A DNA stretch of 60,996 bases, filler included, from Hausera hauseri (taxonomy: Eukaryota), in NCBI GenBank assembly GCA_046269625.1. It is 11 parts of 11 records of this genome, joined end to end, with 100 filler letters (N's around TTAATTAATTAA, not from the genome) between each part and the next. Parts side by side here need not be neighbours in the genome. Positions count along the whole stretch, not along the records: positions 22,077 to 26,060 come from JBJURY010840302.1; 10 more parts are not named here. The stretch is one strand, 5' to 3'. Shown here in pieces: positions 5,965 to 49,719 of the stretch. The translations under genes were made by a program, and so were the position numbers. The notes beneath the pieces are model-generated. The model saw only the letters and a list, made by a program, of their open reading frames with translations, searched no databases and was not told where the DNA came from. Within the stretch, counting starts at the first letter, position 1; each line of letters starts with the position of its first letter.

Positions 5965-6890
5965 GACAGTGTGCATAATAATTCAGGCAACAGAAGATCT
6001 TCTGCATTTGATAAATTATCAAGAAACTCTAACTATGCAGATAAATTTCAGGGTCAAAATAGTATGAGTGGATTCAGTATTCGGACTTTTTTATATGCAG
6101 CAGTTCATTTCATTCATTCAGCAGTTGCCATGTCCACAGTGTTATACTCATACAGACAATGCATTTACAGTGTCTGAAAAATTAACTGGCTTTAGTTCTG
6201 AATTGCACTTTCAATGTACCATTTGCAAACATAAACTGACATTTAAAAATGAAGAAATCATTAATTTGCGATTCCAGTTGCATGGAAGTGTCACCGCTTG
6301 TTAACTGCCATGAATATGCCACCACCAGTTTCAACATGGAACCAGTAGGTCTGAAAAAAATATTTAAAAGATCTATCAGTGAATATGGCCTAACATACAC
6401 TGGTTATTTAGGAGATGGAGATTCCAAAAGCTACAAAGAAATTGCAGAATCAGAACCTCCCATCTATGCTGGTAAAGCAATTAGGAAACTAGAATGTTGT
6501 GACCATGTTCAGAAGAGGATGGGAAAAAGACTTTTAGATAAAGTTGCTGCAAATAAAAGCAAATCATTTATTGAAAATGGCAGAAAATATAAAGGAATTG
6601 GAGGAGTTGGAAGACTGACTAAAACAGCAATAAAAAGAATTCAGGGTCATTATGGAGGGGCAATTCGATCAAACGTGGGAAATTTAGACGCTATGAAGAA
6701 GGCAGTATGGGCAATCTGGGAACACAGAAAAGGTATCCATGTCAATTGTGGAAGATGGTGCCATGGGCAAATTACAAATAAGCTACCAGACTTTGTTATG
6801 GAAATAATAAAACCTGTGTTTGAAGAGCTTTCAAGTGATAATTTGTTACAAAAGTGTTTGCATGGCGGAACGCAAAATGCTAATGAAGCA
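5965..6890 (+). pseudogene. Mutator-like/Kolobok-type transposase copy 2, internally deleted
   Basis: Near-identical to 320-1620; YLGDGDSKSY, KLECCDHVQKRMG, HGGTQNANE; lacks the ~350-bp segment containing DGTW. Confidence 0.85.
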
Positions 6891-6990
6891 NNNNNNNNNN
6901 NNNNNNNNNNNNNNNNNNNNNNNNNNNNNNNNNNTTAATTAATTAANNNNNNNNNNNNNNNNNNNNNNNNNNNNNNNNNNNNNNNNNNNN
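6891..6990. other. Artificial contig spacer N44-TTAATTAATTAA-N44 (also 12325-12424, 17137-17236, 21977-22076, 26061-26160, 31253-31352, 39436-39535, 45245-45344, 49720-49819, 54009-54108)
   Basis: Identical 100-bp spacer with a six-frame stop 12-mer, present ten times. Confidence 0.99.
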
Positions 6991-9489: not shown

Positions 9490-12324
9490 AGACACAACAG
9501 CCTTTGATTGTCCTTCTCCTCCGTCTTCTCCTCCTTCATAGACACGGAGATAATCACCGCGGTTTATTTCCGTCTGTGCCAACTGAACTTCTTTTGCATG
9601 CATTTTCATTCCACAGTCCGTCAGAAGACTGTAGTACTTTGGGTGTAAAAATGTCCATTCCCAATACTAAACCCGACCTTCGCTTTCATCCTTGAAACAG
9701 CCGATTTTGTTTGTGATGGCGTTGCTGTACAATAGATAATTCTGCAGGTAATTGAATGTGTCGAGAAATCTATTTGCCATTATTTTCCGCAGTAGGTTGT
9801 TTGTAATTGACGTTTTTAAGTTTCAAGAAGAAACTATATGTGTCACCGGCAATTAGATTGACCTTGTATACACCAGAAATTTGCCGGTAACGTGCCAAAC
9901 CGCGATACTGCAACTTATACATTCGTAATTTACTAAGGTCAAATACCACATGTCCTATATAGCTTAGCCGGTCCAGTACGACTTCTTCCCTATTTAAAAG
10001 TACGGCAATCCACCGGAAATATGCATTGACCGCCTGAACTGAGCATATTGGTGTACGTGACCAACCGCTTTTCGCTATTGCATTTGACCAGCCGCTTTCT
10101 CAAATTCTTTACTGTTTTACCGTAGAGTGAATTGTTTTTCATCTTGTTATAGTCCTTTTCAAACTTTCTACAAGCTACATCTTGTTTCTCCGATTGCCGA
10201 CTGATGTATGCCTTGAATATCGAAATCTGATTGAATCGGATTGCGCGATGAAATTGTGTGACGCGTACACCCAGTTGCATGTAAAATTGCAACAGACCCC
10301 AATGAATAATATAATTTGATTTGGGTTCATTCGTCATAAGCAGCTTCTTCACTTTCGAGTCGGACGGACATTGGCTAATTGGTGCGACCGATAATTCATC
10401 CAGAAAGACATGCAGCTCATCTGGTACCACAAGATGGACTTCCATCAGGTATCCAATTGAGCTGTTCTCTGTCGTGTCTGTCCTAGGTAGATTTTCCATT
10501 ATGTCGTCTAGATATTGTCTGTAGACTATCCATTCGAATGAACCGTACAGCAAGGGTTGTGAAAGCGCCCAGTCATATAGGTTATTAATATCAATGTATA
10601 ACAGTGATGTGGTGTCATCACTGGTAGCAGCAGCACTAACATAGTGCTTGTTGACAAATGGCATGCCGCCACGAATACCAACATCAAATGGTCTGTAAAT
10701 TTCTGGGTCTTGCAACAGTTCGGTATCCCGATCCAGTGACATCAGGGCTGACGCCCAACTCATTCCCGGTATGGAATAAAAGTTGAGTGGCTCCTACCTA
10801 TCTTCTGTCAACGCTTTAGCTCGAAATGTCTAAAACACATACGCTAATAAGTACACGTCCAGTTTCAGATACTGAAGCATATACCCCAACAGGTTTCTGC
10901 ACCCGTGCTTTCTGCCAATCATCCTCTGTGGTACAGAACAATTGCGATGGCAAGTTTTCTGTTGTCTGAAGTCGCTCGTACAATGCCTCATAGTCGTATG
11001 AAAATATGCCTTTGCTATGTGAAATATGTGTGGAGAACTGTGTCAATGTTAGCGGCACATCTAGTAAGGCATTTACTAACTTTGTTAATGATTCATTCAG
11101 AAATTTCAATAAATTGGGAAAGCGTACCTGGAACCGGTTTATACGATCAGACAAGGATAGGTATTTCTCCATCGTTGTCGGAATTATGGGTTGTTCCCAG
11201 TGCGGAAATCCATTTGTCGCTCATTTTAAAACATGATGACAATGATAACCCCTGAAATTATGAAAGACCACTAATAGGAATGGTCGCACACGCTTTGCCA
11301 AATTGCATGAATTACATGCCGCTCCTAGATGTCGGCCGCTAAAATGATCGTGATCCGGTACTAGCTGCTCCTTTGCATCGAACGGTACTCTTTTGTGCGC
11401 AGGTAACATTTATCGGTGGCTGCAAACATCGCTATTACTTTGATACCACGGTGTGATTTCCGTTTCTACTATTGTTTAAAACTGATGTAGGAAATCGCGT
11501 ACGCAGTCCCAACTGTGGAAAACGTAGTACTGCGGTTGGCCAGTGGCTTCTATTGAGACAACCAACATACCAACAGCGATTGGAATGTGCTTTTGGTCAC
11601 ATACGTTGTGCTGTGGTAACATAACTTCAATATCAGTATATATCACATATTCCAGACTGCCCATTTTTGACCAGTCACTGAATCTAGGTCTCTTTTTAAC
11701 GGACATGACGTATATTGCTGTTTCCGTTGAATTCTGCTTACATAGTGTGAAACGTTTCTCCACGTTGTTTCTGACCTGAAATCATGCAGACATATGGGAC
11801 ACAATTTACACCGTATTTATTTTTGGATGAAGTGATCATGCGCCATGTTCAATAGTCTGTTAAAATTTGTCACGGCCACACAATAAAATTTTCCCTCCTG
11901 CTCTAACAGCAACAAGTTTACTGACTGCCTACTTGGGTTCAGACTTCGATAAACTATGTCAACATGGAAGTTCTTGTAAATTTCTTCATCTGCCGGTATT
12001 TCTACTATTGTACTGTACCGGAAAACGTTAACGGGCAGTGTCGGACTACGCCGATCAAAAGCCAGAATGGTTTTCAGTTTCATCGGCATCCAACTTTCAT
12101 CGAAATCCAATTCGGAAAAATACTGCCGATACTGACTTTGACAATATGCACTATGTCTGTCTATTTCGTCATATGTCAATACCGCCAGAATACTGTAAAG
12201 TAAACTTTATTCATCGTTCGTGTTTTGCACATTCACTACCGCATAATAGTGCTTTAGAGCTTCAGGTGTCCGTATGAATGACCGTCCGGACAGGTAAATT
12301 ATGTCACTCGACTTTGTTATTATA
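9490..12324 (-). pseudogene. Protein-primed family B DNA polymerase (Polinton/adintovirus type)
   Basis: DHDHFSG..GAACNSCNL, FHNFRGYH, GIRGG, YIDINNLY.WALSQPL, KMKNNSLYGKT, IAGDTYSFF, IGCFKDE, HPKYYSL; many frameshifts. Confidence 0.9.
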
Positions 12325-12424: not shown

Positions 12425-15400
12425 GGATCATATGCTTTCTTTTTTAAACTGATTGTCATGAACTGGTGGTGTTTAGTCCCAATTCGCTCCTGGTTCACCT
12501 CGGTGCTATAACCGGTTTCATAAGCCTGTATGTAGCTTTCGAATTGCAAGTTTGACTGCTTGAGTTGATCCCTTTGCATTTGAGGACTGGTGTGCATTGG
12601 GTTTTGAGGGCATCGAATTTCGGTCGTAGGAAAATTGCCTCTTGATACTGAACGCTTTCATTACTCTAGTCTTTAAATTTTCCTATTACAGGTGCGAAAC
12701 GAATCGAGTACAGCGGATCACTTTTATCATAGTTTGAAGTGTTCAACTGCTCGTTTGCTACCATTGCAGGTAAACGTTGTGATCTGAAATCAACACCACA
12801 GTATTCGATGAAAAAACTGTCTGTTTCACCGGCAACGATATTAAGTTCACAATCAAACTGTTGCCTATGTCTCAAACTCGTTATAATTCAGCTCATACAT
12901 GCACAACTTGGATAGATCAAGTACGGCCTGTCCTATGTATGAGGGCCTATCTAATGTAACCATATCTTTATCGAGGAAAACGAAAACCAGGTCATTATCT
13001 ATAATACTCTCCTTAAACTGTGGCTTGCTGGCGTATGTAATAAGCTTCTTAGCATTATTGCATGGTCTCAAGTTGGACCTTTTTAGAAGATTCTCAACAG
13101 TCTTACCATATAAGTTGTTGTTTTTAAGCTTAAAAAATCCTTCTCAAAAGCAATAATCGCTGCAGCTCTCTTAGCAGTATTTAAACCAATATAATGCTTA
13201 AATACATGACCCTGATCAAACTCAACAGCTCGATGAACCTTTTCAACTACAGCCTCTAACTCGATGTACAACTGTAATAGCCGATAGTGAATAACATAAT
13301 TGTACTGACGCTCGTGTCAGAAACAATCTCTTCACTTTGGAACCGAGGGGACATTAATTTATTGGAGCTAAAGGCAGTTGGTCTAATTCATCGTGCTTGT
13401 CCGATGGGACTATTTAATTGTCCCTTATCATAAATCCAAGTCAAATCCCAAATGGCAAAGGTTGAGATAAAGCCCAGCCGTACAAATCATTTACATCTAT
13501 ATACAAGAAAGTAGTGTTTTCATCAGTTATAACCCTAGGCTTATTTACAAAAGTCATACTACCGCGAATACCAGATTGAAAGAACTGATACATTTCAGGA
13601 TCCTGAATGAGCTCAATCTTACAAGGACTTGTTTTCAATGCTGTTGCCCAACCTAAACTTGGAATGGAGACAAAGTTAGTAGCCTCTAAACCATCCTGCA
13701 ACCTAACCTCCTTTCTAAACCGTTCAAAAACATCTAACAAGTATACGTCGAGCTTCATGTATACCAACATATAATCTAAAAAACAGTTACAACAGTATTT
13801 TGACCAAACCAGTTGTGCTTCCGCATAATCGTTATCAATAACACCATCCAATTTGGCTACGGTATATGGAAAAATACCTTTGCCCTTAATAATATCAGAA
13901 GGAAAAGCCGATTCAGTAAATGCGTAGCTATCTAAGTTGGAAGTTAAAATCTTCACTGAAACTGGTAAAAACTGCAATGAGTCTAGAAACTTAACAGAAA
14001 CTGACTTTTTATATGAACCCTGTATATTTGCCTGCATAGTCAGGAATTTTTCAGTAGTTTGAAGGATGACACTCTGGTTCCAAGTACTGAATTTACTTAG
14101 TGCGGGTTTTAAAATATGATGTAGGTGATAACCACGCAAGTTGTGAAACATGACTAGTAAATTATACCTGATTTTGCGAGCCAAATTACATTTGTTGCAA
14201 ACAGGGCCTAAGATTTACCCATAACGTGACAGTGATCTCGAACAAAATCCGACCCGTTTTCATGACAAAGATAACAAGCAGTGGCATGTTTAAAGTAATA
14301 CCATTCAGTTGGTGTTAACGGGATTGTTTTTTCGCATTTTCATGCCATGGGAAAGCATGTTTCTTAACAATTTCCTCCAAGCATGCCATAAACTCAACGA
14401 TAGAATTTTCACGTACAAATTGCCTATATTCAATACCTGTTGCAGACCCTAACAAGAGTCCGGCTGCATCAGGCAAATGAATATGCTTGACTTTGTCGTA
14501 AGGACACAGAATAGATTCAAAGTGAGCATATACGACGAAATATGGACTTATTGACTTTGCCCAATCCTTAAATTCACAAAACTTATTTTCGGGCATTTTT
14601 TGCAACGTAACGCATTTGGAGTTAGACATACACATTGGGAAGTGTTTTGCAAAAGCAGTATCGTACTAAAAGCCATGCAAACATTTCTCACACCAATGTT
14701 TACATTGAATACGGATTTTCGTACTGTTCATATTCAATAGTCGATTAAGATTGGGAACAGCTACGTAGTGAGTTATCATTAATCTTCAAAATCAATAAGT
14801 TAACTACAACACCATTTGGATTTTTGCTGCGATACCAAATATCAACGAATGGATTTTTTGCAATATCCTCATCAAAGTCAACATCATCCTCATCGTTAAA
14901 CAAAAAGACATTAATTGACAACTGCGGATTCTGCCTCTCAAATTTACCTATATTGCACATTTTTATCGGCATATTATTTAAAGAATATTTTAATTCACCT
15001 AAGTATGGGGTGTAATTGCTAACTCTATTTCTATTCCTATGAGTTTCAAAACGTGAATATTTCGTCACTGCAAGAATCGAATATAAGAAACACAAATTGT
15101 CCTCATTCTGCATGTTAATAACGGCCATTGCATTTTTTAAAGCGTCAGGTGTTGCAATTTACGACTTACCAGAGGAGTAGGGTAGTGAGCTTGTTTTGAC
15201 TATATGAAAACAGTATTTCAAGATCGTAACTATCTTCCATCCACTACCCATTTCAGCAAAATTCTCAATTTGCCCCTGCAAGTTATCAGCAAAAGATTGG
15301 GAATAGGCGTGCTCATAAGGGACAGCTCTGTGAAATATAAGACGGCTTAGTATCACTCTCAACATTCTCAAACAGAATCTCAAGACCGTACTGAACCTTA

Positions 15401-15482
15401 CAGGATGGAAACTGAGACGTGTACAGATGTAATGTGGTCAGTATTTCATCAGACGGTCGAATATAAGTCAGTTGGTCAGGCT
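12425..15482 (-). pseudogene. pPolB copy C1 (nearly complete, decayed)
   Basis: GSGWK, AVINMQNEDNLCFLYSI, RDHCH, FHNLRGYH, FLDSLQFL, KGIFPY, GIRG, YIDVNDLYGWALSQPLP, AGETDSFF, IGKFKD. Confidence 0.92.
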
Positions 15483-17136
15483 TCGCTCCTGATCCACCAT
15501 GGTGCTGCAACCGATTTCATAAGCCTGTATGTAGCTGTCGAACTGCAGATATGTTTGTTTGAGATTTACACCCTTGCATTTGAGCACTGGTTTGTTTTGG
15601 GTTTTGAGTGCACAGGATTTCGGCCGTAGGAAAATCGCCTCTTGATACTGAACGCAGCCCTTGTTCTCGTTTTTAAATTTGCCTATTGCAGCTGTGAAAC
15701 GAGTCTAGTACAGCGGAGAACTTTTGTCGTAGTTTGACGTATCTAACTGCTCGTTTGCTATCATTGCCGGTAACAGTTGTGATCTCAAATCAACACGACG
15801 TTTGATGAAAAAATTGTCTGTGTCACCGGCAACGATATTAAGTTCACACTGAAACTGGTGCCTATACGTCTCCAAGTCGATATAATTCAGCTCATATTCG
15901 TAACTTAGATAGATCAAGTACGACCTGACCGATGTATGAGGTCCTATCTAAGGTGACTGTCTTTATCGAGGAGAACGGCTGTATTAATGCTCTCTTTAAA
16001 CTGGGCCTTACTAGCATATGTATCTAGCTTTTTAGCGTTATTACACAGTCTCAGATTTGATCTATTCCGCAAGTTTCAATAGTTTTTCCGTATAAGCTGT
16101 TATTTCTAAGCTTAAAATTCTTTTTCAAAAGGATTATTTGCTGCAGCCCTCTTTGCAGTTTTTAGATCGATATAATCCTTAAAGACATAACCCTTATCAA
16201 ACTCAACGGCTCGATGTACCTTTTCAACTACATTGTCTAACTCGATGTACAACTGTAAGAGCCGATAGTGAATAACATAATTGGACATACGATCATCTGT
16301 AAGCAGCAATTTCTTAACTTTTGAACCAGGGGGACATTGATTAATTGGGGCTAGAGGCAATTGGTCCAACATATCATGTTTGTCAGCTGGAATGCTTAAG
16401 TCGACTTCAAAGACTAAGCTTCGTTTTTCCGTGACACAGTCAATATAGGGCAATTGTTCAATTAAACTGTTTAACTTATTCTTATCATATATTCATACCA
16501 AATTTGCAAATGGCAGTGGTTGCGATAAAGCCCAGCCGTACAATTTATTTACATCTATATACAACAGACTGGTGCTTTTATCGGGGACAACTCTATGCTT
16601 ATTTACGAAAGTCATACCACCGCGAATACCCGATTGAAAGAAATGATACATCTCAGAGTCCTGAATTAGTTCAATACGGCACGGGCTTGTTTTCAGTGCC
16701 TTTGCCCAAGATAAACCTGGAATAGAAAGGAAATTAACGGCCTCTAAATCATCCTGCATCTTAACCTCCTTTCTAAACCGTTCAAAGACATCGCCTAACA
16801 AGTATACGTCGAGCTTTATATATACCAACATGTAATCCAAAAGACAGCTCCAACTGTATTTCAGCCCAGCCGTTTGCGCTTCCTCATAATGGCTGTAACT
16901 AACATCATCCCATTTCGGTGGCAACTCTTTAATAGACTGCAAGTCACTGAAAGATTTGGCTGCAGTATATGGAAAAATACCTTTTCCTCTAATAATGTCA
17001 GGAGGAAAAGCTTACTCAATAAATGGATAGCTATCTAAGTTCGAAGCTAATGTTTTGAGTGAAGCCGGTAGAAACTGTAACGAGTCGAGAAATCGAATAG
17101 ATACAGGCTTTCTAGCTGAACACGTATCATTGCCTG
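15483..17136 (-). pseudogene. pPolB copy C2 (C-terminal portion), head-to-tail with C1
   Basis: FLDSLQFL, KGIFPY, GIRGGMTF, YIDVNKLYGWALSQPLP, AGDTDNFF, FLRPK, KCKGV; clearly homologous to C1. Confidence 0.92.
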
Positions 17137-21394: not shown

Positions 21395-21610
21395 CCACAG
21401 CTCGAGTCATTCACAGCTCGTGTCGAAGTCATTGATACAACATTTTAAAAAATTAATTAGAAACAAATTATTGGTTAAGGTTAGGGTTGGGGTTTAAGGT
21501 TGGGATTTAGAATTAGGCTTTAGGGTTAAAGTTAGGATTATTTCTAAATCACTTTTGAAATATATTTAATAAATAATTTGGACACAAATTGTGAATGGCT
21601 CGAGTTGTAG
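21395..21610. repeat. MITE-like element with ~30-bp imperfect inverted repeats enclosing TTAGGG-like repeats
   Basis: 21395-21424 CCACAGCTCGAGTCATTCACAGCTCGTGTC vs reverse complement of 21581-21610 CTACAACTCGAGCCATTCACAATTTGTGTC; degenerate telomere-like tract at ~21473-21538. Confidence 0.6.
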
Positions 21611-22080
21611 ACGACTCACTTCTATTAGTTTTGCTGCAATTTGAGAAATAATATCCATTTAGCTTGTTTTGTTTAACAAACCATTTTTCACAAACGCATT
21701 CAACCGCTAACGCCAATAGTAGTAGGAAGTTTATTTGCAATACTTTACACAGAACATGTTATCGTCATTTTAAGTTTTCTAACGATAATGAACTACAATC
21801 AGTAACCCAATTACTCTAAAACTGATTGTTAGTAGATCGCGTATCTACCATTCCGACCTCAACGTCATTCGATGATTGTAAGACTGAATTAAGCATTAAA
21901 AATTTATTATAAAAGTTGGTATAACAATTAGCTCATTCACTCATTAAATGAGTCTTGTTTTCATCCTTTTTGGAATNNNNNNNNNNNNNNNNNNNNNNNN
22001 NNNNNNNNNNNNNNNNNNNNTTAATTAATTAANNNNNNNNNNNNNNNNNNNNNNNNNNNNNNNNNNNNNNNNNNNNGGAA

Positions 22081-24014
22081 ATGCAATGTCAGAACGAGCA
22101 GTTATTACGTACGTACATTTTTTGCGTTATTTTTATATACTTTGAGTAATTTTAGGTGAAATTACACAACTGCGCGAAAGGATAAACAGGGGTAACATGA
22201 TCCCTTGCAACGAAATCAAACAGCATCAGAAAGATACATTATTTCGCGTAGATCTGGAAGATATCGTGAATTCACTGCAATCCAAATACGTGAAATCTGT
22301 TAAAGACTTCCCTATACNNNNNNNNNNTTGTTTTAGAAACCAGAACGTCATGCAAATTGCCGAAACTACATGGCAGTTTTTCCGTGAGATCTTATAATAT
22401 TTGGTAACCCTTGGTATTACGTGAATAAAATGTGTGACGTGTTTGAAGCACGTACTACGTACGTTCGATTGCAGGAAGAGGTAAATCCCAAGGGGTTTCA
22501 CCGTTTGCATCTCATCCATCTGAAAATTCCAATCAGGCTACATACCTTCTGTAATGCATTTCGTGCAAGATACGCAATACCAATCAACGATAATTTATAT
22601 GAAGTAATCATTTTTTTAATTTAATCAATTTTATTGTTTCTATATTTACCGCAACAACTTGAAAAAGACGTTTGATGGAGCGACTGTCCCTCAATGGGGC
22701 GTTTGCCCCATTAATATAATGAAGGATAAAACGTTTAAGAAGGCGATGAATCGGCAATTCACCGATGCGCCTTCTTATGACGATGCGCTGGGCACTATCT
22801 TTCAAGGTATTATTTTCTGAATTTTGTTAACCGATTTAATTAATTTTAGCTGACAGGCAAAAATATGTTATCAAGCATAATCAACTAAAGTTTCCTGCAT
22901 GGACAGTTCCAAAACGAAGTGGTGGTCCATTCCAGAACGCAAGTTCCTGATTGACCCAATTCCGTTCGATTGTAGCATCAATCGAAATACTGGCTTATTG
23001 TTCGGTGCTAGTGGAATTGGTAGATTTTTGTCAGATTGATTAATTAGGTTAGTTTAATTTTAGGAAAATCAGCTTTCGCCAAGTCCTATGGAAGTGCCCG
23101 AAGGTGATGCATAACCTATCAGATCTACCTGAAACATGGGATCGAAAGTGTGATATACTCATTATGGACGATATTGGATTCTACAACGTAAATCCTGATT
23201 TGTTCCTAAGTATCCGCCATTCTGAGGATAATGAACATCATTCGTTTGGAGTAAGATGTAGTTATTACTTAATATGAGTTTAATTGTTTTAGGCCTGTTT
23301 AAATTTGTCCAAATCCCACGGGACGTGCCAATGATCATCACTTACAATGAAGAATCTACCTTTTGGCCTTCTGGCATGGGATCAGTGTAGCGGGAAGCAG
23401 TAAAGCGCCGCTGCTTCTATTATAATCCTGGCACTGTAAGATTACTTTGATTATTTTAGTTAATTAACTTTGGTTTAGCATGCGGTTTAAATCGGATCGT
23501 CTACGGAATGCTTGTCTCACTGATAATTGTATCGATTTTGAGAAAACCACTCGTGAGAAAGCTGCCAGGAAAGCCGAAACTGCGGCAGCTGCAGCAGCTA
23601 TTTAAGCTCAGGATGAGGCAGAGTTACTATCTCTGCAAGAGACTCGTGTACTAGCTAAGTGGTCGAGGATGTACTCCATTGGCGGCCGCCTGCTATCGAG
23701 TATACACCAATCAGCCAATTCAGCCAACAGTCACTCCCGGCTTTGCCCTACCAGGACCCGGAGTACAAGCGTCGTAAGCTTGAGCTCCAAGCTTTTAATT
23801 TTGATGTACCGCCGCAAAATGACGCTTTTGAGCTCAGTCAGCATGATGTTGACGATAAATTGGAATTGTATATTTTTTTCACTTTAATCAACTATTTTTA
23901 GAACTGAAATTGTACTGATAGCGTTGATCTGGACGCTGATATAAATGGCATTCATCTATCAGATTTAGACATTACCTCTTTAGATTTACAGTATATTGAT
24001 ATACTGCCGTTGTA
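22081..24014 (+). pseudogene. rep: Spliced CRESS/geminivirus-like Rep (HUH endonuclease + SF3 helicase), ~9 exons
   Basis: Motif I-like RNYMAVFP, motif II-like GFHRLHLIHL, degenerate motif III (NIMKD), Walker A GASGIGKS restored by removing intron 23020-23063, Walker B ILIMDD, B'/C VQIPRDVPMIITYN, Arg-finger AVKRRC; a few stops and frameshifts. Confidence 0.85.
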
Positions 24015-24130
24015 ATTTTTTATATAAATAATTGTATAATTTTTGTATATTATTTCTTGTTACCGCCTTGTAATTTAGTTCTAATATGATTTTTTAGACT
24101 ATATTGTTACGCGCCTATGTAATACTTTTA

Positions 24131-24835
24131 TTATGAAAAACCATGATAACTTTTGTTGTATAGAAACATCCACTCCATCAACGCAGTTTCACTAAAGTTA
24201 TTCGGTCCGATTGATTTAGGAATATTTCTTTGCTTTTTATTCCAATTCCGTGTTGCTTACTGTTCGTTGCGTATCTGCATCAGAGCTACACCACGAGATT
24301 TTCTTTTCCATTTAGCAGTCAAACTTACTATTAAGCACTGATCTTTCGGCTTGTTATCATTTGGTATAGGATAAAACGGAGTATCATCATTGTTTTCTAA
24401 GTTGAGATTATATGTAACTTTTGAATTATTTAATACCTGTAACAATTTGTGAGTCTGCTATCATACTCTCAAAATTACTTGGAATATTTGCACATTATAC
24501 GCATGGATTGTACCTGTCCATATAGCAGTGGACCAGTCTATCTCCTAATACGGCATTGAACGTTGAACCACCGAGCATGTGCTAGTACTCCTGTTTGAGA
24601 TTGGATTAGTATTTCATCCATTGGATCCGACTGAAATATTCCTGTTGACATTGTAATTTGTGTTAGCTTGTCTTCGATGTTGTATTTGACTGCCATTTCG
24701 GCGTATATTTTAGGACGTTTCGTATTAATAATGTACAATCATCCAATGTTTTAAAAGAAACAAAATGTGGCTCAAAATTCAAATTTTTACACCTACCTAA
24801 GAACCATGCAGTACGCCTGCTTGTATGTATCACTT
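24131..24835 (-). pseudogene. Spliced unknown gene convergent with rep (capsid candidate)
   Basis: 42-nt GT-AG intron 24437-24478 joins ..HAYNVQIFQ to VLNNSKVTY.. in frame; stop at 24131-24133 overlaps AATAAA. Confidence 0.5.
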
Positions 24836-25003
24836 ATGTAACTGTCATCCATCTCCGCCCTATTAACCGTGTATGTGCATCGTTTTTCTACCCCGTGACT
24901 CATTCCGAACCACTTCTTTTCCTTCCGTCCCTGGGAGAGGGAGGTTGGCGAGATGTGCTCCCTTCTATCTGCTCATGTCTGATAATAAAGTTGATTGATT
25001 AAT
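24825..25003 (+). mobile_element. Probable 3' end of a 5'-truncated L2/CR1-like LINE
   Basis: Hairpin GAGGGAG..CTCCCTTC followed by AATAAAGTTGATTGATT tail. Confidence 0.4.
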
Positions 25004-25009
25004 CAGGAC

Positions 25010-26060
25010 CGATATAATCTTAAAAAGAAATTTTTTTCTCCAATGTAGCTCGTTGAACATCTTTAGCCCGTTTCTCTATTTCTCCATCAACAACAAGGGC
25101 ATACATTTTTGGTCGAAGTCCGACATAGGCAGTAATAATCTTGCTGTTAACTTCATCATTAAATTTTCCTAAAACTTTTTTATTTGACAAGGAAAAGTTC
25201 TTATGGTCTCTCGGATAATCTGATGTATCAAAGAAATTTGCCAAATTATAAAAATCATTGAATATATCATCAGACCTAATACGATATATGAATGAATCGG
25301 TATCTACATACATTAATTGAATGTCTGGAAATTTGACTTCTTGATATTATAGTGAAAGTCGAACATGGATGTTTTTAACAAATGAAGTATCGACATACCA
25401 ACATAAATCGGCTTGCTATTTTTCAGAATCGTGTTTGGCATTTTGATACTAGCAAAATTTTCGAAATACAGAGTGCTATGTAAGAAATTAGGCTTTTGCA
25501 TTAACTTTTTCGCTCTTGTCCAGTTGTTGACCAACTCAATTGACAGCCTGTTTATTATATTCACTATAGATTTTCCAAAAACTGAGTTGCTGTATAATTT
25601 GAATTGATCTTTTTCAAATTTGTTTGTTGCATTTGCTCGAAGATCTGTGTTGAATTTAATAAGGTTGAAGACATTTGAATTGACTGAACTGCAAAGCCCT
25701 ATGCACTTTGGTGACAATGAGACCATTACGAATAGCCTGCTGCAAATTTATGTAATGTACTACATGTCGTTTCATTTCACCCAAATGTGTTAATAATTTC
25801 CTGAATTTTCCGCCAGGTGGTTTTCCCTTTCCATAGGAAAGGCAACTAATCATGTTCTACATGTTGAAGCCAATCACGGTGAATATCTATCTCAAAGATA
25901 TATCCCGTTTCAGCGTCATCAGTAATGCTCATAATATCCATACTATCCGTATGATCTACCTATTTAAAATTATCGTATTGGAGGCTGAGACTCATTGCCC
26001 AACCGTACAAGTTGTTTGCATCCAGATATGTGATTAAAGATAATGGTTTTGTTTCATCCT
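25010..26060 (-). pseudogene. pPolB fragment (Maverick/Polinton type, distinct from the contig B and C copies)
   Basis: NNLYGWAMS..LQY, KLYSNSVFGKS, PIYVGMSIL, YVDTDSFIY, FDTSDYP, GKFNDE, GLRPKMYA. Confidence 0.92.
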
Positions 26061-31252: not shown

Positions 31253-31625
31253 NNNNNNNNNNNNNNNNNNNNNNNNNNNNNNNNNNNNNNNNNNNNTTAA
31301 TTAATTAANNNNNNNNNNNNNNNNNNNNNNNNNNNNNNNNNNNNNNNNNNNNCGAATGCTATTTTACTGTATTGATTGAATTGACTCGAATCGAGGGTAT
31401 CAAGAATATTGAATTAATTGCCGCACAGCTTCTTGATATTGCTATCCGAGTTCCTACTGTTTGAGAATTCACTGTGAAACAAATGGCAAATCTGCTGCAC
31501 ACATTTGGCAATTTATTAACTAATGCTAAGCAGTCTGGTATCTGCGAAATTGGTGGTCGAAGGATACACAACTGGTGCCAGGTAACATTTCTTGCAACTA
31601 TCATTACACAACTATTACTTTATAA

Positions 31626-32645
31626 ATGCTTTCCGTCTAAAGTCGTTTTCATACATATCGGTCAGTTTGGTGTGCAGCGCGCCAGTGCACTGTGGGAATT
31701 ATTGTGTCTTGAACACATTAATGATCCAGATGGACTAAAAGCATTAAAAGATAATGATTTAACTGACGAACTTGACCAAACGACAGCATTATCACAACCA
31801 GTAAACCACTATAAGTTGAATCCAAGAGCAATACTTGGCGATTCAGAGCCCATATGCATAAATAATTTTAAGATTAGTGCATGTGGAAATATTTCTAGTA
31901 GAGAATTAATGATTACTAAATGTGAAGATTCCGGTAGCAATTTTGCTCAACGAAGTCTCAATTTTGGTGTACGATTAATAAGATTGTTTCCACCGCGGCT
32001 ATTTAAACTAGCTGAAATAACGAATAATTGGGATGAATTTATCGTCATAAACAGTATGAGTGGTGGTACAAGGTCTAGAATTGGTGCGTTGATAATGCCG
32101 CAATTAGCCGTTGATTAACCCAAAACAAACCGAATGCAAATGGCATTATTCCCCAACCCGATAATGTCTACGGCGACTGTTGAACCATACAATAGCGTTT
32201 TCCATAGTCATACAACACTAGATAAGTGTGATTTGTCTATACCTTTTAATAATGAGGCTCTTTATGACGTTTGTAAATATCTATTGTTCAGGAATTCACC
32301 ATATTATTCTAATCTCAATCGAATAATACCTCTAATGCTTAGCTCATCTACAGCATCAGCGCAATTTGAAACAACGATAAATTATTTTTTGAAAGAAATA
32401 CATACAAATTCAATACCGTATCAAAGGATACACCACGCAATAATGAGACATTCTCCAATTCTGCACGAAACACGATTTAAGTATGCCAGTCCATCGGGCG
32501 AACAAATTATAAGGAGTCTCCTCGAAAGATCGCCCAACGATTAAAACCGACTTAAATAAAGAGAAATTCATATCGATTGTTATGAACTATCGAGGTGAAG
32601 TTAAGCCTAGAGATGTCATGATGGCAATTCAGAAATGCCGAGCAA
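31626..32645 (+). pseudogene. Highly divergent, intronless alpha-tubulin pseudogene
   Basis: IHIGQFGVQRASALWELLCLEH, PRAILGDSEP, EDSGSNFA, SMSGGTRS, STATVEPYNSV, NEALYDVC, YSNLNRII, YRGEVKPRDV; in-frame TAA at 32116-32118; truncated by the adjacent Gypsy. Confidence 0.9.
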
Positions 32646-42500: not shown

Positions 42501-42764
42501 GGGACAATGAAAACTTCACGATTTAAATGATCTAAAAGCACTCTTCCAGACGAAATAGTAATTGATAGAATTATGATAGACAGCACGATGGAAGAATTAA
42601 GGAAAGTTTTGATACATTTAGCAGTGGGAACCAACCCTCTTCGGGAAAACGAATTTTACAAGGCAATTGGATTATCTAGAAAAGCTGCGAGAAAGATTTC
42701 CAAAGAAATAAAGTGGACTAAATTGTTTGAAAAAGTAAAAATGCAAAAGGGACTAATAAGTTAG
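39536..42764 (+). pseudogene. Long decayed ORF region of an env-bearing retroelement (ubiquitin-like domain, AT-hook)
   Basis: Chain of same-strand ORF fragments; Ubl-like TTVGDIKQWIMDKDG/YRLYFRGRILDELESLIDVGI at ~41890-42110; KRPVGRPRK at ~42290-42320. Confidence 0.6.
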
Positions 42765-42769
42765 AAGAT

Positions 42770-45244
42770 ATGATACGAAATATTTCTTTAAATAAAGGTA
42801 ATGAATCCAACTGGTTAGTCAATCTGATGACAATAATGATGTTAATAAAACAGCTAGGAGCAGTCACTATATACAACTGTGATAAATTCAAGATAAGTCA
42901 AAGATATTCTCTAATGAATCTGGAAGCGTGTGAATATGCAAGACCACACAAGTTAGAAATGAGGGAGAAAAATTACTTCTTGTACCAGCAACAAGATCTG
43001 ATATCGTTAGACGGAATGGAATGCATGTTGCAACGATTTTGCAGTATTTTTCACTGTGGATTAATGCACGGACATTCTTCGATAATCAAACCAACAACTC
43101 CCCAAATTCCCATGAAATTGGAACGGCAGCACTGCAAACAGGCTAAAGAGACTGGAAGAGTACAATGGGACAATATGGAATTAAAAATGCAAGCTGTAAA
43201 AATAATTAGGGCATACAAAGTAGTAGCCGGAAGGTTAAACATGCATAATGGACACTGTAGTGGAGCTGAATACGATACTGGTAAGGGCTTAGAACCAAAT
43301 GTAGTAGTTCTGGATTTCTACGAATCAGAAATGAGAACACAGAAATTAATGTTTCATAGCGTCAACAAGTTATATACGGAGAACCAGAAATGTCATTTAC
43401 AGGATGGAACCTGTGCCTTTAAGAGCTCAGTTATAATATGGGAACCTCCCTCAGGAAGAAGTTGTAATTTTATTAAAATCAAAGAACTAAAGTTTAATGA
43501 GACCACCGGGAAACGATACGTGCATAAATTGGATACCAATTCAAGGACGCGCGAGGATGTATTAGAACATTCTACGCCCACCATATTAATCTCCGATCAA
43601 CACGGACTAAAATTTATCAAGGAAGTGATGTCACGTTGTGATGTGGTAATGTTTGCTACTATCTACGAAGCATTCTTCGTAGCCGAAACTGAGATAAATG
43701 CAAGGACTTATAAGTTGGAAACACAAGATATCAGGATTGAGGACTATCTGAAGAGACGATTAGTTTTATTACAAAGAACAAACTGGAATAACTGAGTTAT
43801 ACCACAAAATGATAACGAACGACTGTAAATTTGATACTGAGATCATGAGGACAAAACTGGCTCTTATATATGCCAATCCAGAACTGGCTTTGCCAATAAT
43901 TCCTATGAGATAGGGAATCTTTTGTCGAGTTACAGGCGAAGTACTAATAACTTACGAATATGAAGAGATGTACCCATCAATGTAGAAGAGAAATGTTGCA
44001 TCCAGGAATTTCCTGTCATCTATCAGAACACTCCTAGACTAGCTATACCATTGACGAGAGTATTATTGGATAATGCAACCCAACCCACTATTTTAAGATT
44101 GTAAAGCGAGCTTAGGAGAGCCCATGTTTAGGCGTAGTGAGACAGACTGGGTCAGTTTACCGAATGGAGGTATTACTGCTACCCCAAACAAATTAACAGG
44201 GACATCTTGCGAAAGGAATTACGTACGATAAATTTCAGGATACTTCATCGAAAGGCATATATAGGCCTAAGGAGATTGAAGCCTTTAGATAATTCCTCGC
44301 TTTTCCACAACGAACGCATGAATTAAACCGAGCCATGGCTTCTGTAGTAGACGATACCCGATATCAGGCTAAGTGGGAATCTCTACTTCGCACTAATCAC
44401 TACCAAAGAGTAACTTCAGAAATATTGTATAAGATTTCGGGAAGATTTTTAATTTTCGGACAAGCTGTATTTGGATTCTTAGCCATCTACTTAGTTCAGT
44501 TATTTAAAGCAGTAATACAAGCTATCATCAACGGATACGAAATATTCACATTAACCGGATTCTCCTGTAAGATTTTAAGTGCAATTATTACACTTTGGGA
44601 TAATGCTCAAGGCCTACGAGGAAAATCGATGGAAAAATGATGTAGAACGCCATGTCGGATACTATAATCGCAAGCGACGAGGAAAACTTTCGATTTTGTA
44701 TAGACGGAAAAATAAGACAACAGTAACAACTAAGGATGATTCAAGTGATGACGAGCCTAAGGGAGAAGTGAATTCCAGAATGAAGATGCGCAAGATGTAT
44801 TCAGTAATTAACGCACTGTTACCTATCATGCCGCCAACAGCACCAATATATGAAGACTAACCGCAAATCAATCGTATCATGTCGGTCCGAGATCTATCAA
44901 AAACCGTTTAATTACGAAGATCCTTATGAAAAAACAAAACAATATGGAGTACTACGGAAAATGAATGTTATCCACCAAGGATCAACAGAAATCGACATGA
45001 TGCTTATGTACCTTTTATTTTACCCCAATGTCAATCATGGAAAAATTTATACTGGGCAAATGTCAGTAAACCCATCAGCCCCTCGGTATATGGAACATGG
45101 AGGGATGTATCTCACGTATCAAGTTTTGTAAATGAAACAGAATTACGAGGAAAATCCCATACCATAAAACTGCGAACCCACATGTAAAACGAGTAATAAG
45201 AATGGGCCCCAACCCTTTATGAAACCAGGTAAGTAGTAGGATTG
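42770..45244 (+). pseudogene. env: Chuvirus-like glycoprotein (env) with TM segments and cytoplasmic tail
   Basis: Signal-like WLVNLMTIMMLIKQLGA, then IYNC..YSL..C, HCGLMHGHSS, CHLQDGTC..IIWEP, RVTGEV, EFPV, PLTRVL; TM FLIFGQAVFGFLAIYLV. Confidence 0.75.
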
Positions 45245-45344: not shown

Positions 45345-48300
45345 TCATGAACTGACGTTCGATTGACGAAAACACATGCATTGATGTATTCGTCCCAGTC
45401 ATCTTGCCTAGTATTTACTACTGTTTGTAATTTTCCCTTCAAATCTCCAATATATCTCTCAACCATTCCATTATTCTCCGGATGTCCGGGCGTTGACCGC
45501 AACTTTAATATTTTCACAATATCATATATGGACTGCATCACTATTCCCGTCAAATTTGATGCTTGATCGGTCGAGAGGATTCTCGGAGCTCTATAATTGA
45601 ATACTATGCTTTCCACGAATCTTTTAGCAATTGTGTCTGCCTTCATGTCAGGCTTTGGTAAGGCAACCACCCATCCGGTGGAATAATCGATGAATACCAA
45701 TATATACTTATTTCCATTTTGTGTTAGTGGTAATGGTCCCGTTATATCCATAGCGGTAAACTCAAATGGTGCTGGAGGGTTGTCCCATACTTTTAATGGT
45801 GCTTTGAATTTCGATCCTGTGTTTTCCGTGTAGAAAACAGTTTACAGCTTTCACACAATTCCTGCACGTTTTTTGTTATCCGTGGCCAAAAATATTTTCG
45901 TTTTAATTTGCTTGATGTCTTATTAGCAGATTGATGTCCTCCAAGCAATCCATCGTGGTATTGCGTAAGCAGAACTGCCCTATTTTTCTTAGGAATTACT
46001 AATGCGGGTTTGTTTTGAGTAATAAAATATAAAAATCCTTCCTTCTCCTCGTATGCTTCGCTGAATTGAGGCAGGTGACGAGTTAACTCTCTATCAACTG
46101 GCACGGTCTTACCTTTTATATATTTCCTAATGGCTCTTGTTTTTTCATCTTCATTCTGATTTGCTTTAATTTTCTCAATTGATCCATCCATACTCCATAC
46201 GGCTGCAACTACTGCTTTCGTTTCAGTTTTGTCGGGTAATCTCGATAGGTAATCGGCATTGGCATTGCGCGTGACAGGCTTGTATTGAAAATTTAATGTA
46301 TACTGTTGTAGCTTCAGGGCCCATCGTAGTAATCTACTATTCGGGTTTTCATGCTGTTTTAGCCATTGCAGTGGTCTATGGTCCGTATAAATTACAAGCG
46401 GTTTATTTTCACTAATATACGGTAAAAACATTTCCAAGGCGAATATCACCGCTAATAACTCCTTTTCTGTTATAGCTTATTTCTTTTGATGTTTATTAAG
46501 TTTTCGTGAAGCATAGGCTACAGGATGTTCCTTCCCATCTTTACCCTTTTGTGACAATACTGCTCCTAATCCGTAATCACTTGCATCTGTTGCCAGAATA
46601 AATGGTTTGGTCATGTCTGGATATATCAATATAGGAGCCGTTAATAGTCTATCTTTTAAATATTCGAAAGTTTTCTGACATTCGGTAGTCCAAATAACCT
46701 TATCTAAATCTTCACGTAATAACTCATACAAAGGTTTTGCGATTTTACTAAAATCCTTTATAAATCTCCGGTAATAGTTGGCTAGTCCTAGGAACTGACG
46801 GAGTTCTCTCACTGTACCAGGCTTAGGAAAATCCTTTATTTTTCCTAAGAGCTTGTCCTGAGGTTTTACACCATGTCTATCTACTTTATGCCCGAGAAAA
46901 TCCACCTCTGATTGTGCAAACGAACACTTCTTGGGGTTTATCTTTAAGCCCATTATTTCACATCTATCGAAGAGATCTTGCAAATCCTTTAAATGTTGAT
47001 GAAAATCTGATGACGCTATTATTACGTCGTCTATATATACCATGACGTGTGGAGCGTCTAACAGCAGGAGTTCTGTTCCTCTCTGGAACGTTGGAGGTCC
47101 ATTCTTTAGTCCAAAGGGCATCCTATTGAACTCCCATAACCCTTGTCCAATTGAGAAGGCTGTCTTCGGCTTATCTTCTTTTTTAACTTCCACTTACCAA
47201 TAACCTTTTTATAGATCGATGGTTGTAAATATAGTTGATCCATGTAGTTTATCTAGTATCTCGTCGATTCTTGGTAATGGGTATGTATCTGTTTCCGTTA
47301 TTTCATTTAGGGCTCTGTAGTCTATGCAAAATCTCATACTTCCGTCTTTCTTTTTAACCATTACTACCGGCGCTGTCCATGGTGAGCAGCTTTGCCGAAT
47401 TATCTTATTCTCTCTCATCTCCTTTATTATTCTACGGGCTTCCTGTTTCTTGTCATATGCCAGCCGGTATGGTCTCTTCTTAATTGGTTTGTCTTGTCCA
47501 TCCTTCAATTTGATGACATGCTGAATTACCTTCATGGTACCAAGGTCATAATCGGTTTGTGCAAATCGACTGGCATTCTTTTCTAGTAATTTGACTAACA
47601 TTTCCTTTTCTTCCTTGCTTAAAATTTCGCATTTTTGCAACCTTTCATTCCAGTCAATATTCGTGGTTTTACTTTGTCTTTTATCCTCACTCATTTTCTT
47701 CAGTTTCTCTGTCATCATCTTTTCTATTTTATCTACGTCTGATATTACTGAATAGGTCTCATCTTTTATTATTTCTTCAGTTATCGTTACCTTTCCCAAT
47801 TTAGTATTTTTCCGTAATCGCTTTTCTCTATTTGTTGCATTGCAAATTCGTAAGTGGATTTTTCCTTCCCTTACTTTATCGACGTGCGGGGCAATTAAGA
47901 CTTCGTACTTTTCCATAACTTGTGGAAATGGTTCGAAATGAATAATTTCCGGTAGTGTTCGGCTTTGTATTTTTCCGGGTACTATTATCTCGGATCGTGG
48001 TGGGATCGTAATGTCCCTCGTTAATGAAACCATTCCTTCGTTACGATCTTCGCTGAACGTCTTCAGTTGACATGTTTTCATGTCTCTGTATGCGTCCTCC
48101 AATTGATTCAATACGTCACACCCGATTAGAATTTCATTAGTCAGATTATCGGCTATTCTTATCGTGTGTTTCAGGGTTTGTTCACCAATCTTAATCTTGG
48201 CATCTAGGACCATTTTGATTTCCTCTTCTGTACCAAATGCTCCTACATTTACCATTGTGATAGTTGGTTTTCTTAACTTCTTTCTTAACTCTTTTGGCAA

Positions 48301-48420
48301 TTGGCTCTTGCCCATTATTGTCGTTGTAGATCCTGTATCTAACAAAGCCATCATGGGGTATCCGTTCACTTCTATTTCTATTTCGGGTCGTATCGGTGGT
48401 GGTCGTTCGGTTTTATCATT
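45345..48420 (-). mobile_element. pol: Gypsy pol: PR, dUTPase-like-fold spacer, RT, RNase H, integrase
   Basis: [45 protein letters not shown] zinc motif, MDITGPLP, STDQASN. Confidence 0.97.
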
Positions 48421-49719
48421 AATTGTATATGTAGATTCACGCTTATGGGGGACTGCATTTTCGTACATACTTTGTTTCATCTGTTGCACTTGTTGTATAG
48501 GATACAGTTCTGCATGTCCTACATATTGGGGAGCTGAATAATTTATTAACGTTTGCTCGTTATATAGTTGCCCGTGGTATTCATCCGCAGGATCCAACTG
48601 AGGCAGGTCAGTTATTAATTTTTGTCTATACTTGGACTTTCGTGTCTTTAACATTAAGTGTTTAATGCTAGGTATTCGTTTCTTTACTTTCATTTGGCTA
48701 TACTCAGCATCATTATCATCCGGTATACTATATAAGGATTCTTTTATGTCTTTCCTCTTTAGTATCTTCCTCTTCCATCGTGCATCATGGTTTGCTAAGA
48801 AACAACTTGCTACTGCCGGTATTACCGCTATTAGAATTTTCCATGAGCATCCTACTGCGGCATGTATCCCATATGCTTTACCTAGTGCCGTAAATACTGT
48901 TCGAAGGGCACTAATTATAAAATATATCGCTAGAAAACCGGAAGCGGCTTGACCAAAATATAAGAACTTGCCCCACATCTTTTTCATTACGTTTTTCGTC
49001 ACCTTCTTTAAATAGTCCTTACCAATAAGGTTTTCCCACTATGGTGATCCTTCGCCATCCCACATAACTCTCCTTGTCAATTCCGTTATAACCCTCTGTC
49101 TATGCTGTGGAAACAGCAACATACGTCGATAGTCTTTTAGATTTTGCTGTGCGTAGATTTCTCCTTGCGATATTCCAGTCAACGGTTCAAATTTCTGATT
49201 CCGTTGTAAATTAATTAAACTCAATGTCTCTGGTTTGGATACTGATTCTATTTTTGGCATCCTGATCTATTTATCGTTATCAATCTTGAACATGGGTGAC
49301 ATATTAAAGGTACAATTATATAGAGACGTTGGCTTCACGTTATTATCTAATAATATTCTAGTTACTGGGATCACGTATCTTGGTTCCATATGGTACATCA
49401 CAAGTAATTCCATCGTGCATTCTTCTGTTGGCCTAATTGATACTTCCACTTTTGTACATTCTATTGTTATTAAAACTTCGCCCATTATTCTGCCGATAAT
49501 TCCATCAACGAAGGCATTACAGGCGCTACCATATCCGGGTTCGTTATTACCAGCGCCATTTTATTACGCATTATTTCGTAATTCAGCTTGCACTCTTTCA
49601 TTATTATTTCACGATATAGACCTCTAACTTCTTTTCTTACGTAATTGATTAAAAAATCAATCTTATTGTAGAAATATTGCGTCAGTTTTATCTTTCTTAT
49701 CTATTTTGGTTTTCGCCCC
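48421..49719 (-). pseudogene. env: Env C-terminal half, contiguous and in frame with PR-RT
   Basis: Homologous to 43750-45130 ([28 protein letters not shown]); single ORF 47209-49002 spans TM, tail, protease and start of RT. Confidence 0.85.

Follow-up and report, generated by a model that had tools for sequence, protein, structure and literature searches.

Introduction

CRESS Reps are normally encoded by plain ORFs, and CRESS genomes have an ambisense layout. In the Reps of Geminiviridae and Genomoviridae a GRS motif lies between motifs II and III, and gemini- and genomovirus rep genes are not known to contain more than one intron. Copies of such genes are also found in host chromosomes. Endogenous multi-copy Reps are described in the accessible text of PMC3198968 with about 60 copies each in the salmon louse and in Varroa, and the word 'intron' is absent from its main text. 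In a parasitic flatworm, a CRESS virus was reported together with capsid-like sequences in the host genome (PMC10269781, as far as its accessible sections go). Replitrons, a further group of HUH elements linked to CRESS Reps, are described from plants, algae and protists in the part of PMC10288648 at hand. An intron-rich CRESS Rep was not found in the literature searched, which consisted largely of open-access articles.

Here we analysed a window of 60,996 nucleotides, filler included, from Hausera hauseri, in which an initial annotation had proposed a geminivirus-like CRESS Rep interrupted by about eight introns. Judged by its sequence, the gene represents one decayed member of an intron-rich family of CRESS-type Rep elements that occurs in many copies.

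Results

The window consists of 11 short contigs chained by N44-TTAATTAATTAA-N44 spacers, and contigs across a spacer are unlinked. The Rep-like gene occupies the 5′ half of contig 22077-26060 and begins at the first base of this contig, so that nothing upstream is linked to it (Table 1). On other contigs of the window, Pfam searches revealed a Mutator-like transposase, a tubulin, a Monjiviricetes-type fusion glycoprotein and polB, while C2H2 zinc-finger and Gypsy-like frames were read by eye. This content points to a repeat-rich animal genome as the probable host genome.

Several of these frames are features in their own right. Pieces of the Mutator-like transposase lie on the plus strand at 227-1482 (PF20700, E 3e-39) and 6240-6938. 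A divergent, intronless tubulin with an internal stop is located at 31465-32544 (+); a single search for it gave no homologue at E 1e-10. The fusion glycoprotein at 42731-43795 (+; PF24664, E 3e-18) shares its contig with a gag-like frame, and env-like frames related to it were read by eye at 47209-49560, beside a Gypsy pol. A degenerate TTAGGG-like run at 21470-21540 belongs to the neighbouring unlinked contig.

Table 1. Predicted features of contig 22077-26060. Depths are contig depths in sequencing run X1.
Feature	Position	Strand	Description
Exon 1	22078..22108	+	Contig 5′ end; ATG at 22081, putative start
Intron 1	22109..22155	+	47 nt, GT..TTTTAG
Exon 2	22156..22289	+	N-terminal extension, helical/coiled-coil-like by eye; open in 1/3 frames
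Intron 2	22290..22336	+	47 nt, contains 10 N
Exon 3	22337..22603	+	Putative HUH nuclease core including stretches like motifs I and II; stop 22385; weak profile match; relatives at depth 80-140
Intron 3	22604..22643	+	GT donor; non-canonical acceptor in this copy (end 22643 or 22649); spanned by a relative contig of depth 138
Exon 4	22644..22806	+	Motif III region with Tyr codon 22647-22649; middle oligomerisation-like domain starts here
Intron 4	22807..22849	+	43 nt
Exon 5	22850..23019	+	Remainder of middle domain, then Walker A (first half); internal frame change
Intron 5	23020..23063	+	44 nt, splits Walker A
Exon 6	23064..23257	+	Rest of Walker A, followed by Walker B; frame change near 23094
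Intron 6	23258..23292	+	35 nt
Exon 7	23293..23435	+	Motif B′/C and Arg finger; stop 23388
Intron 7	23436..23478	+	43 nt; out of phase in this copy
Exon 8	23479..23867	+	C-terminal extension with KRRK; stop 23603, frame change near 23676; mostly low depth
Intron 8	23868..23901	+	34 nt; out of phase in this copy
Exon 9	23902..24015	+	Acidic tail; stop 24013-24015
AT-rich gap	24015..24133		119 nt, GC 0.20, between two convergent 3′ ends; no notable hairpin
Second decayed frame	24134..24738	-	Convergent with Rep; 40-nt GT..AG intron (24436-24397); depth 16-121
Abundant repeat	24775..26060	-	Decayed protein-primed-type polB pieces; truncates second frame; depth 1e4-1e5; 44 loose ends at 24775

Seven bounded intron-like segments of 34-47 nt start with GT and end with AG, and their boundaries agree with those given in the initial annotation. 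Six of the seven end with TTTTAG, the segment 23436-23478 with GGTTTAG. GC content was 0.21 in the intron segments versus 0.43 in the exons. Between 22078 and 24014 seven GT..AG segments were counted on the plus strand and none on the minus strand. This number exceeds that of dinucleotide shuffles, which contained 0.30 segments on average and at most 3 (0/1000 reached 7), and that of 222 other tiles of the window (mean 0.23, maximum 4). The eighth segment, whose acceptor had been called unclear, indeed has a GT donor at 22604 and lacks a canonical acceptor; ends at 22643 and at 22649 are both frame-preserving. Its acceptor has been lost in this copy. Six of the eight introns are in phase with an open frame on both sides. 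Fair tests of phase are provided by introns 2, 4, 5 and 6, for which simple arithmetic gives a joint chance of ~1 in 81. An introner-like origin of the introns was rejected, as the 2 of 28 intron pairs below P 0.05 equal the chance expectation.

To characterize the encoded protein, profiles were built from natural IMG/VR Reps, comprising 107 nuclease and 50 helicase pieces of genomovirus-like type, 62 nuclease and 117 helicase pieces of circovirus-like type and 74 begomovirus-like Reps. The gene pieces compared with them carried X at every break. As anticipated in the annotation, which had named an SF3 profile search as a check, the helicase exons matched the genomovirus-type SF3 profile (hhalign probability 93.9, E 1.6e-7). 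The score of this half against the genomovirus profile (16 bits) was attained by 0/1000 shuffles, and with free choice of frame and one frame change the real DNA reached 24.3 bits versus at most 6.5 bits in 100 shuffled sets. The five best single matches among 411 Rep pieces were all genomovirus-like. The match to the circovirus-like profile was weaker (hhalign probability 43.6), with the Arg finger in register. In exon 6, a stop-rich wrong frame scored higher in the genomovirus profile than the Walker B frame (24.3 versus 15.6 bits), so this profile alone leaves the frame of exon 6 unfixed; the Walker B frame is favoured only by the circovirus-like profile (probability 40 versus 3) and by an indel in relatives. 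All motifs quoted in the annotation were found, among them the Walker A split by an intron, the acidic tail and KRRK, and the type of each helicase motif (both Walker motifs, motif C and Arg finger) is preserved. The C-terminal half, which has the two Walker motifs and motif C, is a predicted CRESS-type SF3 helicase.

The Arg finger had been taken for a geminiviral feature. An Arg finger is indeed present, and it aligns with that of the circovirus-like profile; geminiviral Reps, by contrast, have Asn at this place according to the accessible text of PMC8780604. The classification as a geminivirus-like Rep held for the SF3 half, which is gemini/genomovirus-like; the nuclease half reached 8 bits with the circovirus-like profile. 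A gemini/genomo-like helicase joined to an Arg finger is, as predicted here, a combination matching neither Geminiviridae nor Genomoviridae.

The N-terminal half gave lower scores. It obtained 8.0-8.4 bits with the circovirus-like nuclease profile, a value attained by 0/1000 shuffles in each run, and 2.3 bits with a pooled profile, which 5-9/1000 shuffles reached. No match was found to the genomovirus nuclease profile, where 205-311/1000 shuffles reached the score, or to the begomovirus nuclease profile, and by hhalign the probability for the nuclease half was 6 or less. The initial annotation had regarded motifs I and II as established. The motif I-like and II-like stretches are in register with 6 natural Reps in an alignment, which agrees with that view. 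In contrast, the failure to match the genomovirus and begomovirus nuclease profiles and the non-canonical residues of this copy do not: Val replaces the conserved Thr of motif I and Arg the conserved first His of motif II (for both conserved residues see the accessible part of PMC8780604). No GRS motif was seen between motifs II and III in the alignment with the 6 natural Reps.

The Tyr of motif III had been read as Asn. This assignment was not confirmed: relatives differ from this copy at the codon in question, but without Tyr, and an in-frame Tyr codon is located three codons upstream at 22647-22649. Taken as motif III, this Tyr would set the variable codon at the general-base position of the YxxK/YxxH motifs, as that position is given in the available sections of PMC8780604 and PMC6668415. 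The middle region resembled begomovirus Rep weakly (3.4 bits, 0/500 shuffles; hhalign E 0.0034, probability 9). This weak alignment was colinear over 179 columns, which start at the motif III region, cross the middle domain and run into the helicase.

One reading of these scores is that only the SF3 helicase is real, and that the N-terminal half is no working HUH nuclease, movement being due to another enzyme not on the contig. It would account for the low nuclease profile scores and goes along with a single-sequence fold of exon 3 that was uninformative (pLDDT 49) and an Atlas search with exon 3 that gave no usable match. However, motif I-like and II-like stretches, Tyr, middle domain and SF3 helicase follow each other in the order and spacing of a Rep, and no shuffle attained the score with the circovirus-like nuclease profile. 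We consider such a helicase-only gene very improbable and the N-terminal half a probable HUH nuclease.

Two public sequencing runs, X1 and X2, contain the stretch. Run X2 held a single 238-nt contig with 1 difference at depth 2.3, which is too little for use. In run X1 the copy's own contigs had depths of 4.9-8.1, whereas relatives of ~80-95% identity appeared as single contigs at depths of 79.6, 137, 138 and 167.5 and with a summed depth of up to 586; since contig depth is not copy number and cannot separate integrated copies from episomes, these values are read only as many close relatives. The annotation had made its proposal depend on intron segments being conserved in homologous copies. 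The relatives retain the introns: their contigs run unspliced across the donor at 22604, all of intron 3, the acceptor at 23292 and likewise the donor at 23436. None of the joints listed among relatives in run X1 skips an intron. At 80% identity, cover by the relatives falls off near introns 4-6, within part of exon 5 and beyond 23500, which indicates stronger conservation of the enzyme core than of the introns and the tail.

Of the 93 places at which relatives differ from this copy, 40 were listed; among these, 12 of the 20 in exon 7 are at codon position 3 (P 0.013). Across the 38 listed places in exons, position 2 is depleted (6/38, P 0.013), while the excess at position 3 (17/38) is not significant (P 0.095). 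The state of decay recognized in the annotation was confirmed. In addition to the stops at 22385, 23388 and 23603, this copy contains frame changes in exons 5, 6 and 8, and its introns 7 and 8 do not join in phase. Relatives differ from it at or within 2 nt of five breaks, namely 22385, the intron 3 acceptor, 23094, 23388 and 23434, the break at 23094 having been fixed from profile work before the difference in the relatives was seen. Accordingly, the frame model holds at these five places, where the breaks arose as this copy decayed.

Downstream of the AT-rich gap, the second decayed frame stands in the place that would be the capsid slot of an ambisense CRESS genome. Compared with 456 non-Rep ORFs of fetched CRESS loci it gave no convincing match; the best (E 0.025) was on the other strand. 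None of the 14 clusters of CRESS non-Rep ORFs tested, out of 21, matched it (best: 4/200 shuffles, hhalign probability under 1), and neither Pfam nor PDB contained a credible match. A nonanucleotide, an origin hairpin, element ends and target sites were not found on contig 22077-26060, whose 5′ intergenic side is missing.

This arrangement bears on the possibility that the gene derives from an intron-rich, capsid-encoding CRESS virus of the host, with the minus-strand frame as capsid gene, the high-depth relatives as episomes or repeated integrations and this copy as a fossil. Two frames converging on the short AT-rich gap are what an ambisense CRESS layout would produce. The intron of the second frame falls into the same size class as those of the Rep gene, the depth of this frame is that of a multi-copy sequence, and single relative contigs of depth up to 167 represent near-identical molecules. 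The parasitic flatworm mentioned above, as far as described in PMC10269781, offers a precedent. On the other hand, the second frame resembled none of the tested CRESS clusters and nothing credible in Pfam or PDB, the contig yielded no origin, and no relative was detected among the viral contigs of IMG/VR. We regard a capsid-encoding virus as unlikely, though worth keeping in view.

The second frame is truncated by the polB repeat, which probably lies outside the Rep element. As the copy adjoins this repeat at its very high depth, this Rep copy is chromosomal. Decayed protein-primed-type polB pieces were also observed at 9770-11220 and 12865-17011 on other parts of the window, and 9990-10793 matches Pfam DNA_pol_B_2.

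The same repeat has to be considered if a Rep-derived gene had been domesticated by the host, acquiring introns and terminal extensions, and had been passively multiplied, either by segmental duplication or as cargo of another mobile element. A polB-bearing repeat on the same contig would provide a vehicle, and eight introns, long N- and C-terminal extensions and the non-canonical residues in motifs I and II would suit a host gene. However, the repeat is 100-1000x deeper than the Rep part, and Rep is therefore not its regular cargo. Several high-depth lineages of 80-95% identity next to decayed low-depth copies form the pattern of a mobile-element subfamily; moreover, the Walker motifs, motif C and the Arg finger have stayed intact in type, and an annotated orthologue was absent among 1.84 billion representatives. 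Domestication appears rather improbable on these grounds.

Searches for relatives outside the run gave no close hits. Pfam searches with single exons and single-frame read-throughs returned no Rep family and no Helitron family, and an unspliced six-frame search with the genomovirus-type profiles had no match at the locus. A phmmer search of a 258-residue single-frame read-through against the 1.84 billion representatives yielded 0 matches at E 0.001, its sensitivity being limited by the short exons. Homologue searches and IMG/VR searches with exon 3 found none, PDB sequence searches gave no credible match, and neither a plasmid search nor comparison with one phytoplasma plasmid Rep produced a match. 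Three sets of candidates were discarded. The one IMG/VR match of exon 7 was a phage frame hit by chance, the 6 loci with an IMG/VR motif pattern lay on contigs of 9-46 kb and were judged chance from their size, and 3 of 298 metagenome contigs that passed were all chance matches in bacterial genes. Within the limited sensitivity of these searches, the protein, virus and contig collections searched yielded no close relative. As no exon exceeds about 130 codons and both six-frame profiles and Pfam are blind to the locus, elements of this kind would go unnoticed in standard screens for viruses and repeats.

Discussion

We give an even chance to the interpretation that the locus is the replication gene of a virus-derived element which used rolling-circle replication to multiply in a probable animal genome. 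In this scheme, the host spliceosome would remove the introns from the Rep transcript, and the Tyr of Rep would nick the origin of the element. Rep may form a ring through its middle domain, the SF3 motor would unwind the DNA for copying by a host polymerase, and new copies would be rejoined into chromosomes. Since such an element would be copied as DNA and not by reverse transcription, introns once gained would be kept and inherited.

More broadly, the gene may represent an undescribed animal rolling-circle group built on a CRESS Rep (Y1 HUH plus SF3) with gene-like intron density. It would then either add a third type to the eukaryotic HUH transposons, next to Replitrons and Helitrons, or be a lineage of host-adapted ssDNA viruses in which introns fragment both the Rep and the capsid gene so strongly that ORF-based virus searches overlook it. 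We hold this proposal tentatively, at somewhat less than even. If the family is mobile, it could supply a missing step from circular ssDNA viruses to rolling-circle transposons, with the SF3 helicase that Replitrons lack, and would serve as a test case for a compact viral gene gaining many introns. What is new here is one public run that holds this copy at low depth together with intron-keeping relatives of 80-95% identity at high depth.

Among known systems, the Reps of Geminiviridae and Genomoviridae are closest in the SF3 half, for which the genomovirus-type profile is the best match, and in the middle domain, which is weakly colinear with that of begomoviruses. Identity is ~20% over about 150 residues. 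The gene differs from both families in matching neither of their nuclease profiles, in lacking a GRS and in its long terminal extensions. Its eight introns compare with no more than one known in these families. Furthermore, RR aligned with the circovirus-like Arg finger occupies the place of their Asn (PMC8780604, accessible text). Arg finger and missing GRS argue that the gene is not a member of either family. Circovirus-like (Arfiviricetes) Reps share the alignable motif II region and the Arg finger; in contrast, the SF3 half matches them less well (probability 44), a WWDGY-type motif is absent here, and motif II ends with His instead of Gln.

Endogenous CRESS Reps of eukaryotes, including those of the Tuber geminivirus-like transposon, the salmon louse and Varroa, are likewise chromosomal, multi-copy and mostly decayed, as the available text of PMC3198968 describes them. 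According to the same text, however, the Tuber element owes its mobility to separate transposase ORFs and to terminal inverted repeats, neither of which was seen here. A link to the planarian PEVE element, which the annotation had suggested for comparison, found no support. PEVE and PIVE also have an SF3-type helicase, but are characterized in the accessible part of PMC3198968 as parvovirus/papillomavirus-like, not gemini-like, with terminal inverted repeats; by this description they would be set apart.

Helitrons are comparable in their rolling-circle copying within animal genomes, which for the present element is a prediction. They differ in using a Y2 Rep with an SF1B (Pif1-type) helicase, according to the portion of PMC10288648 at hand, whereas the helicase here is of SF3 type. 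Replitrons come nearer in organization. As far as that same source describes them, they are eukaryotic, intron-bearing HUH elements with a link to CRESS Reps, whose extensions cannot be aligned and which have an oligomerisation-like domain in the middle. Unlike the gene analysed here, they have no helicase and carry HUQ and GYxxK. The fused SF3 helicase predicted for this gene thus places it with neither Replitrons nor Helitrons.
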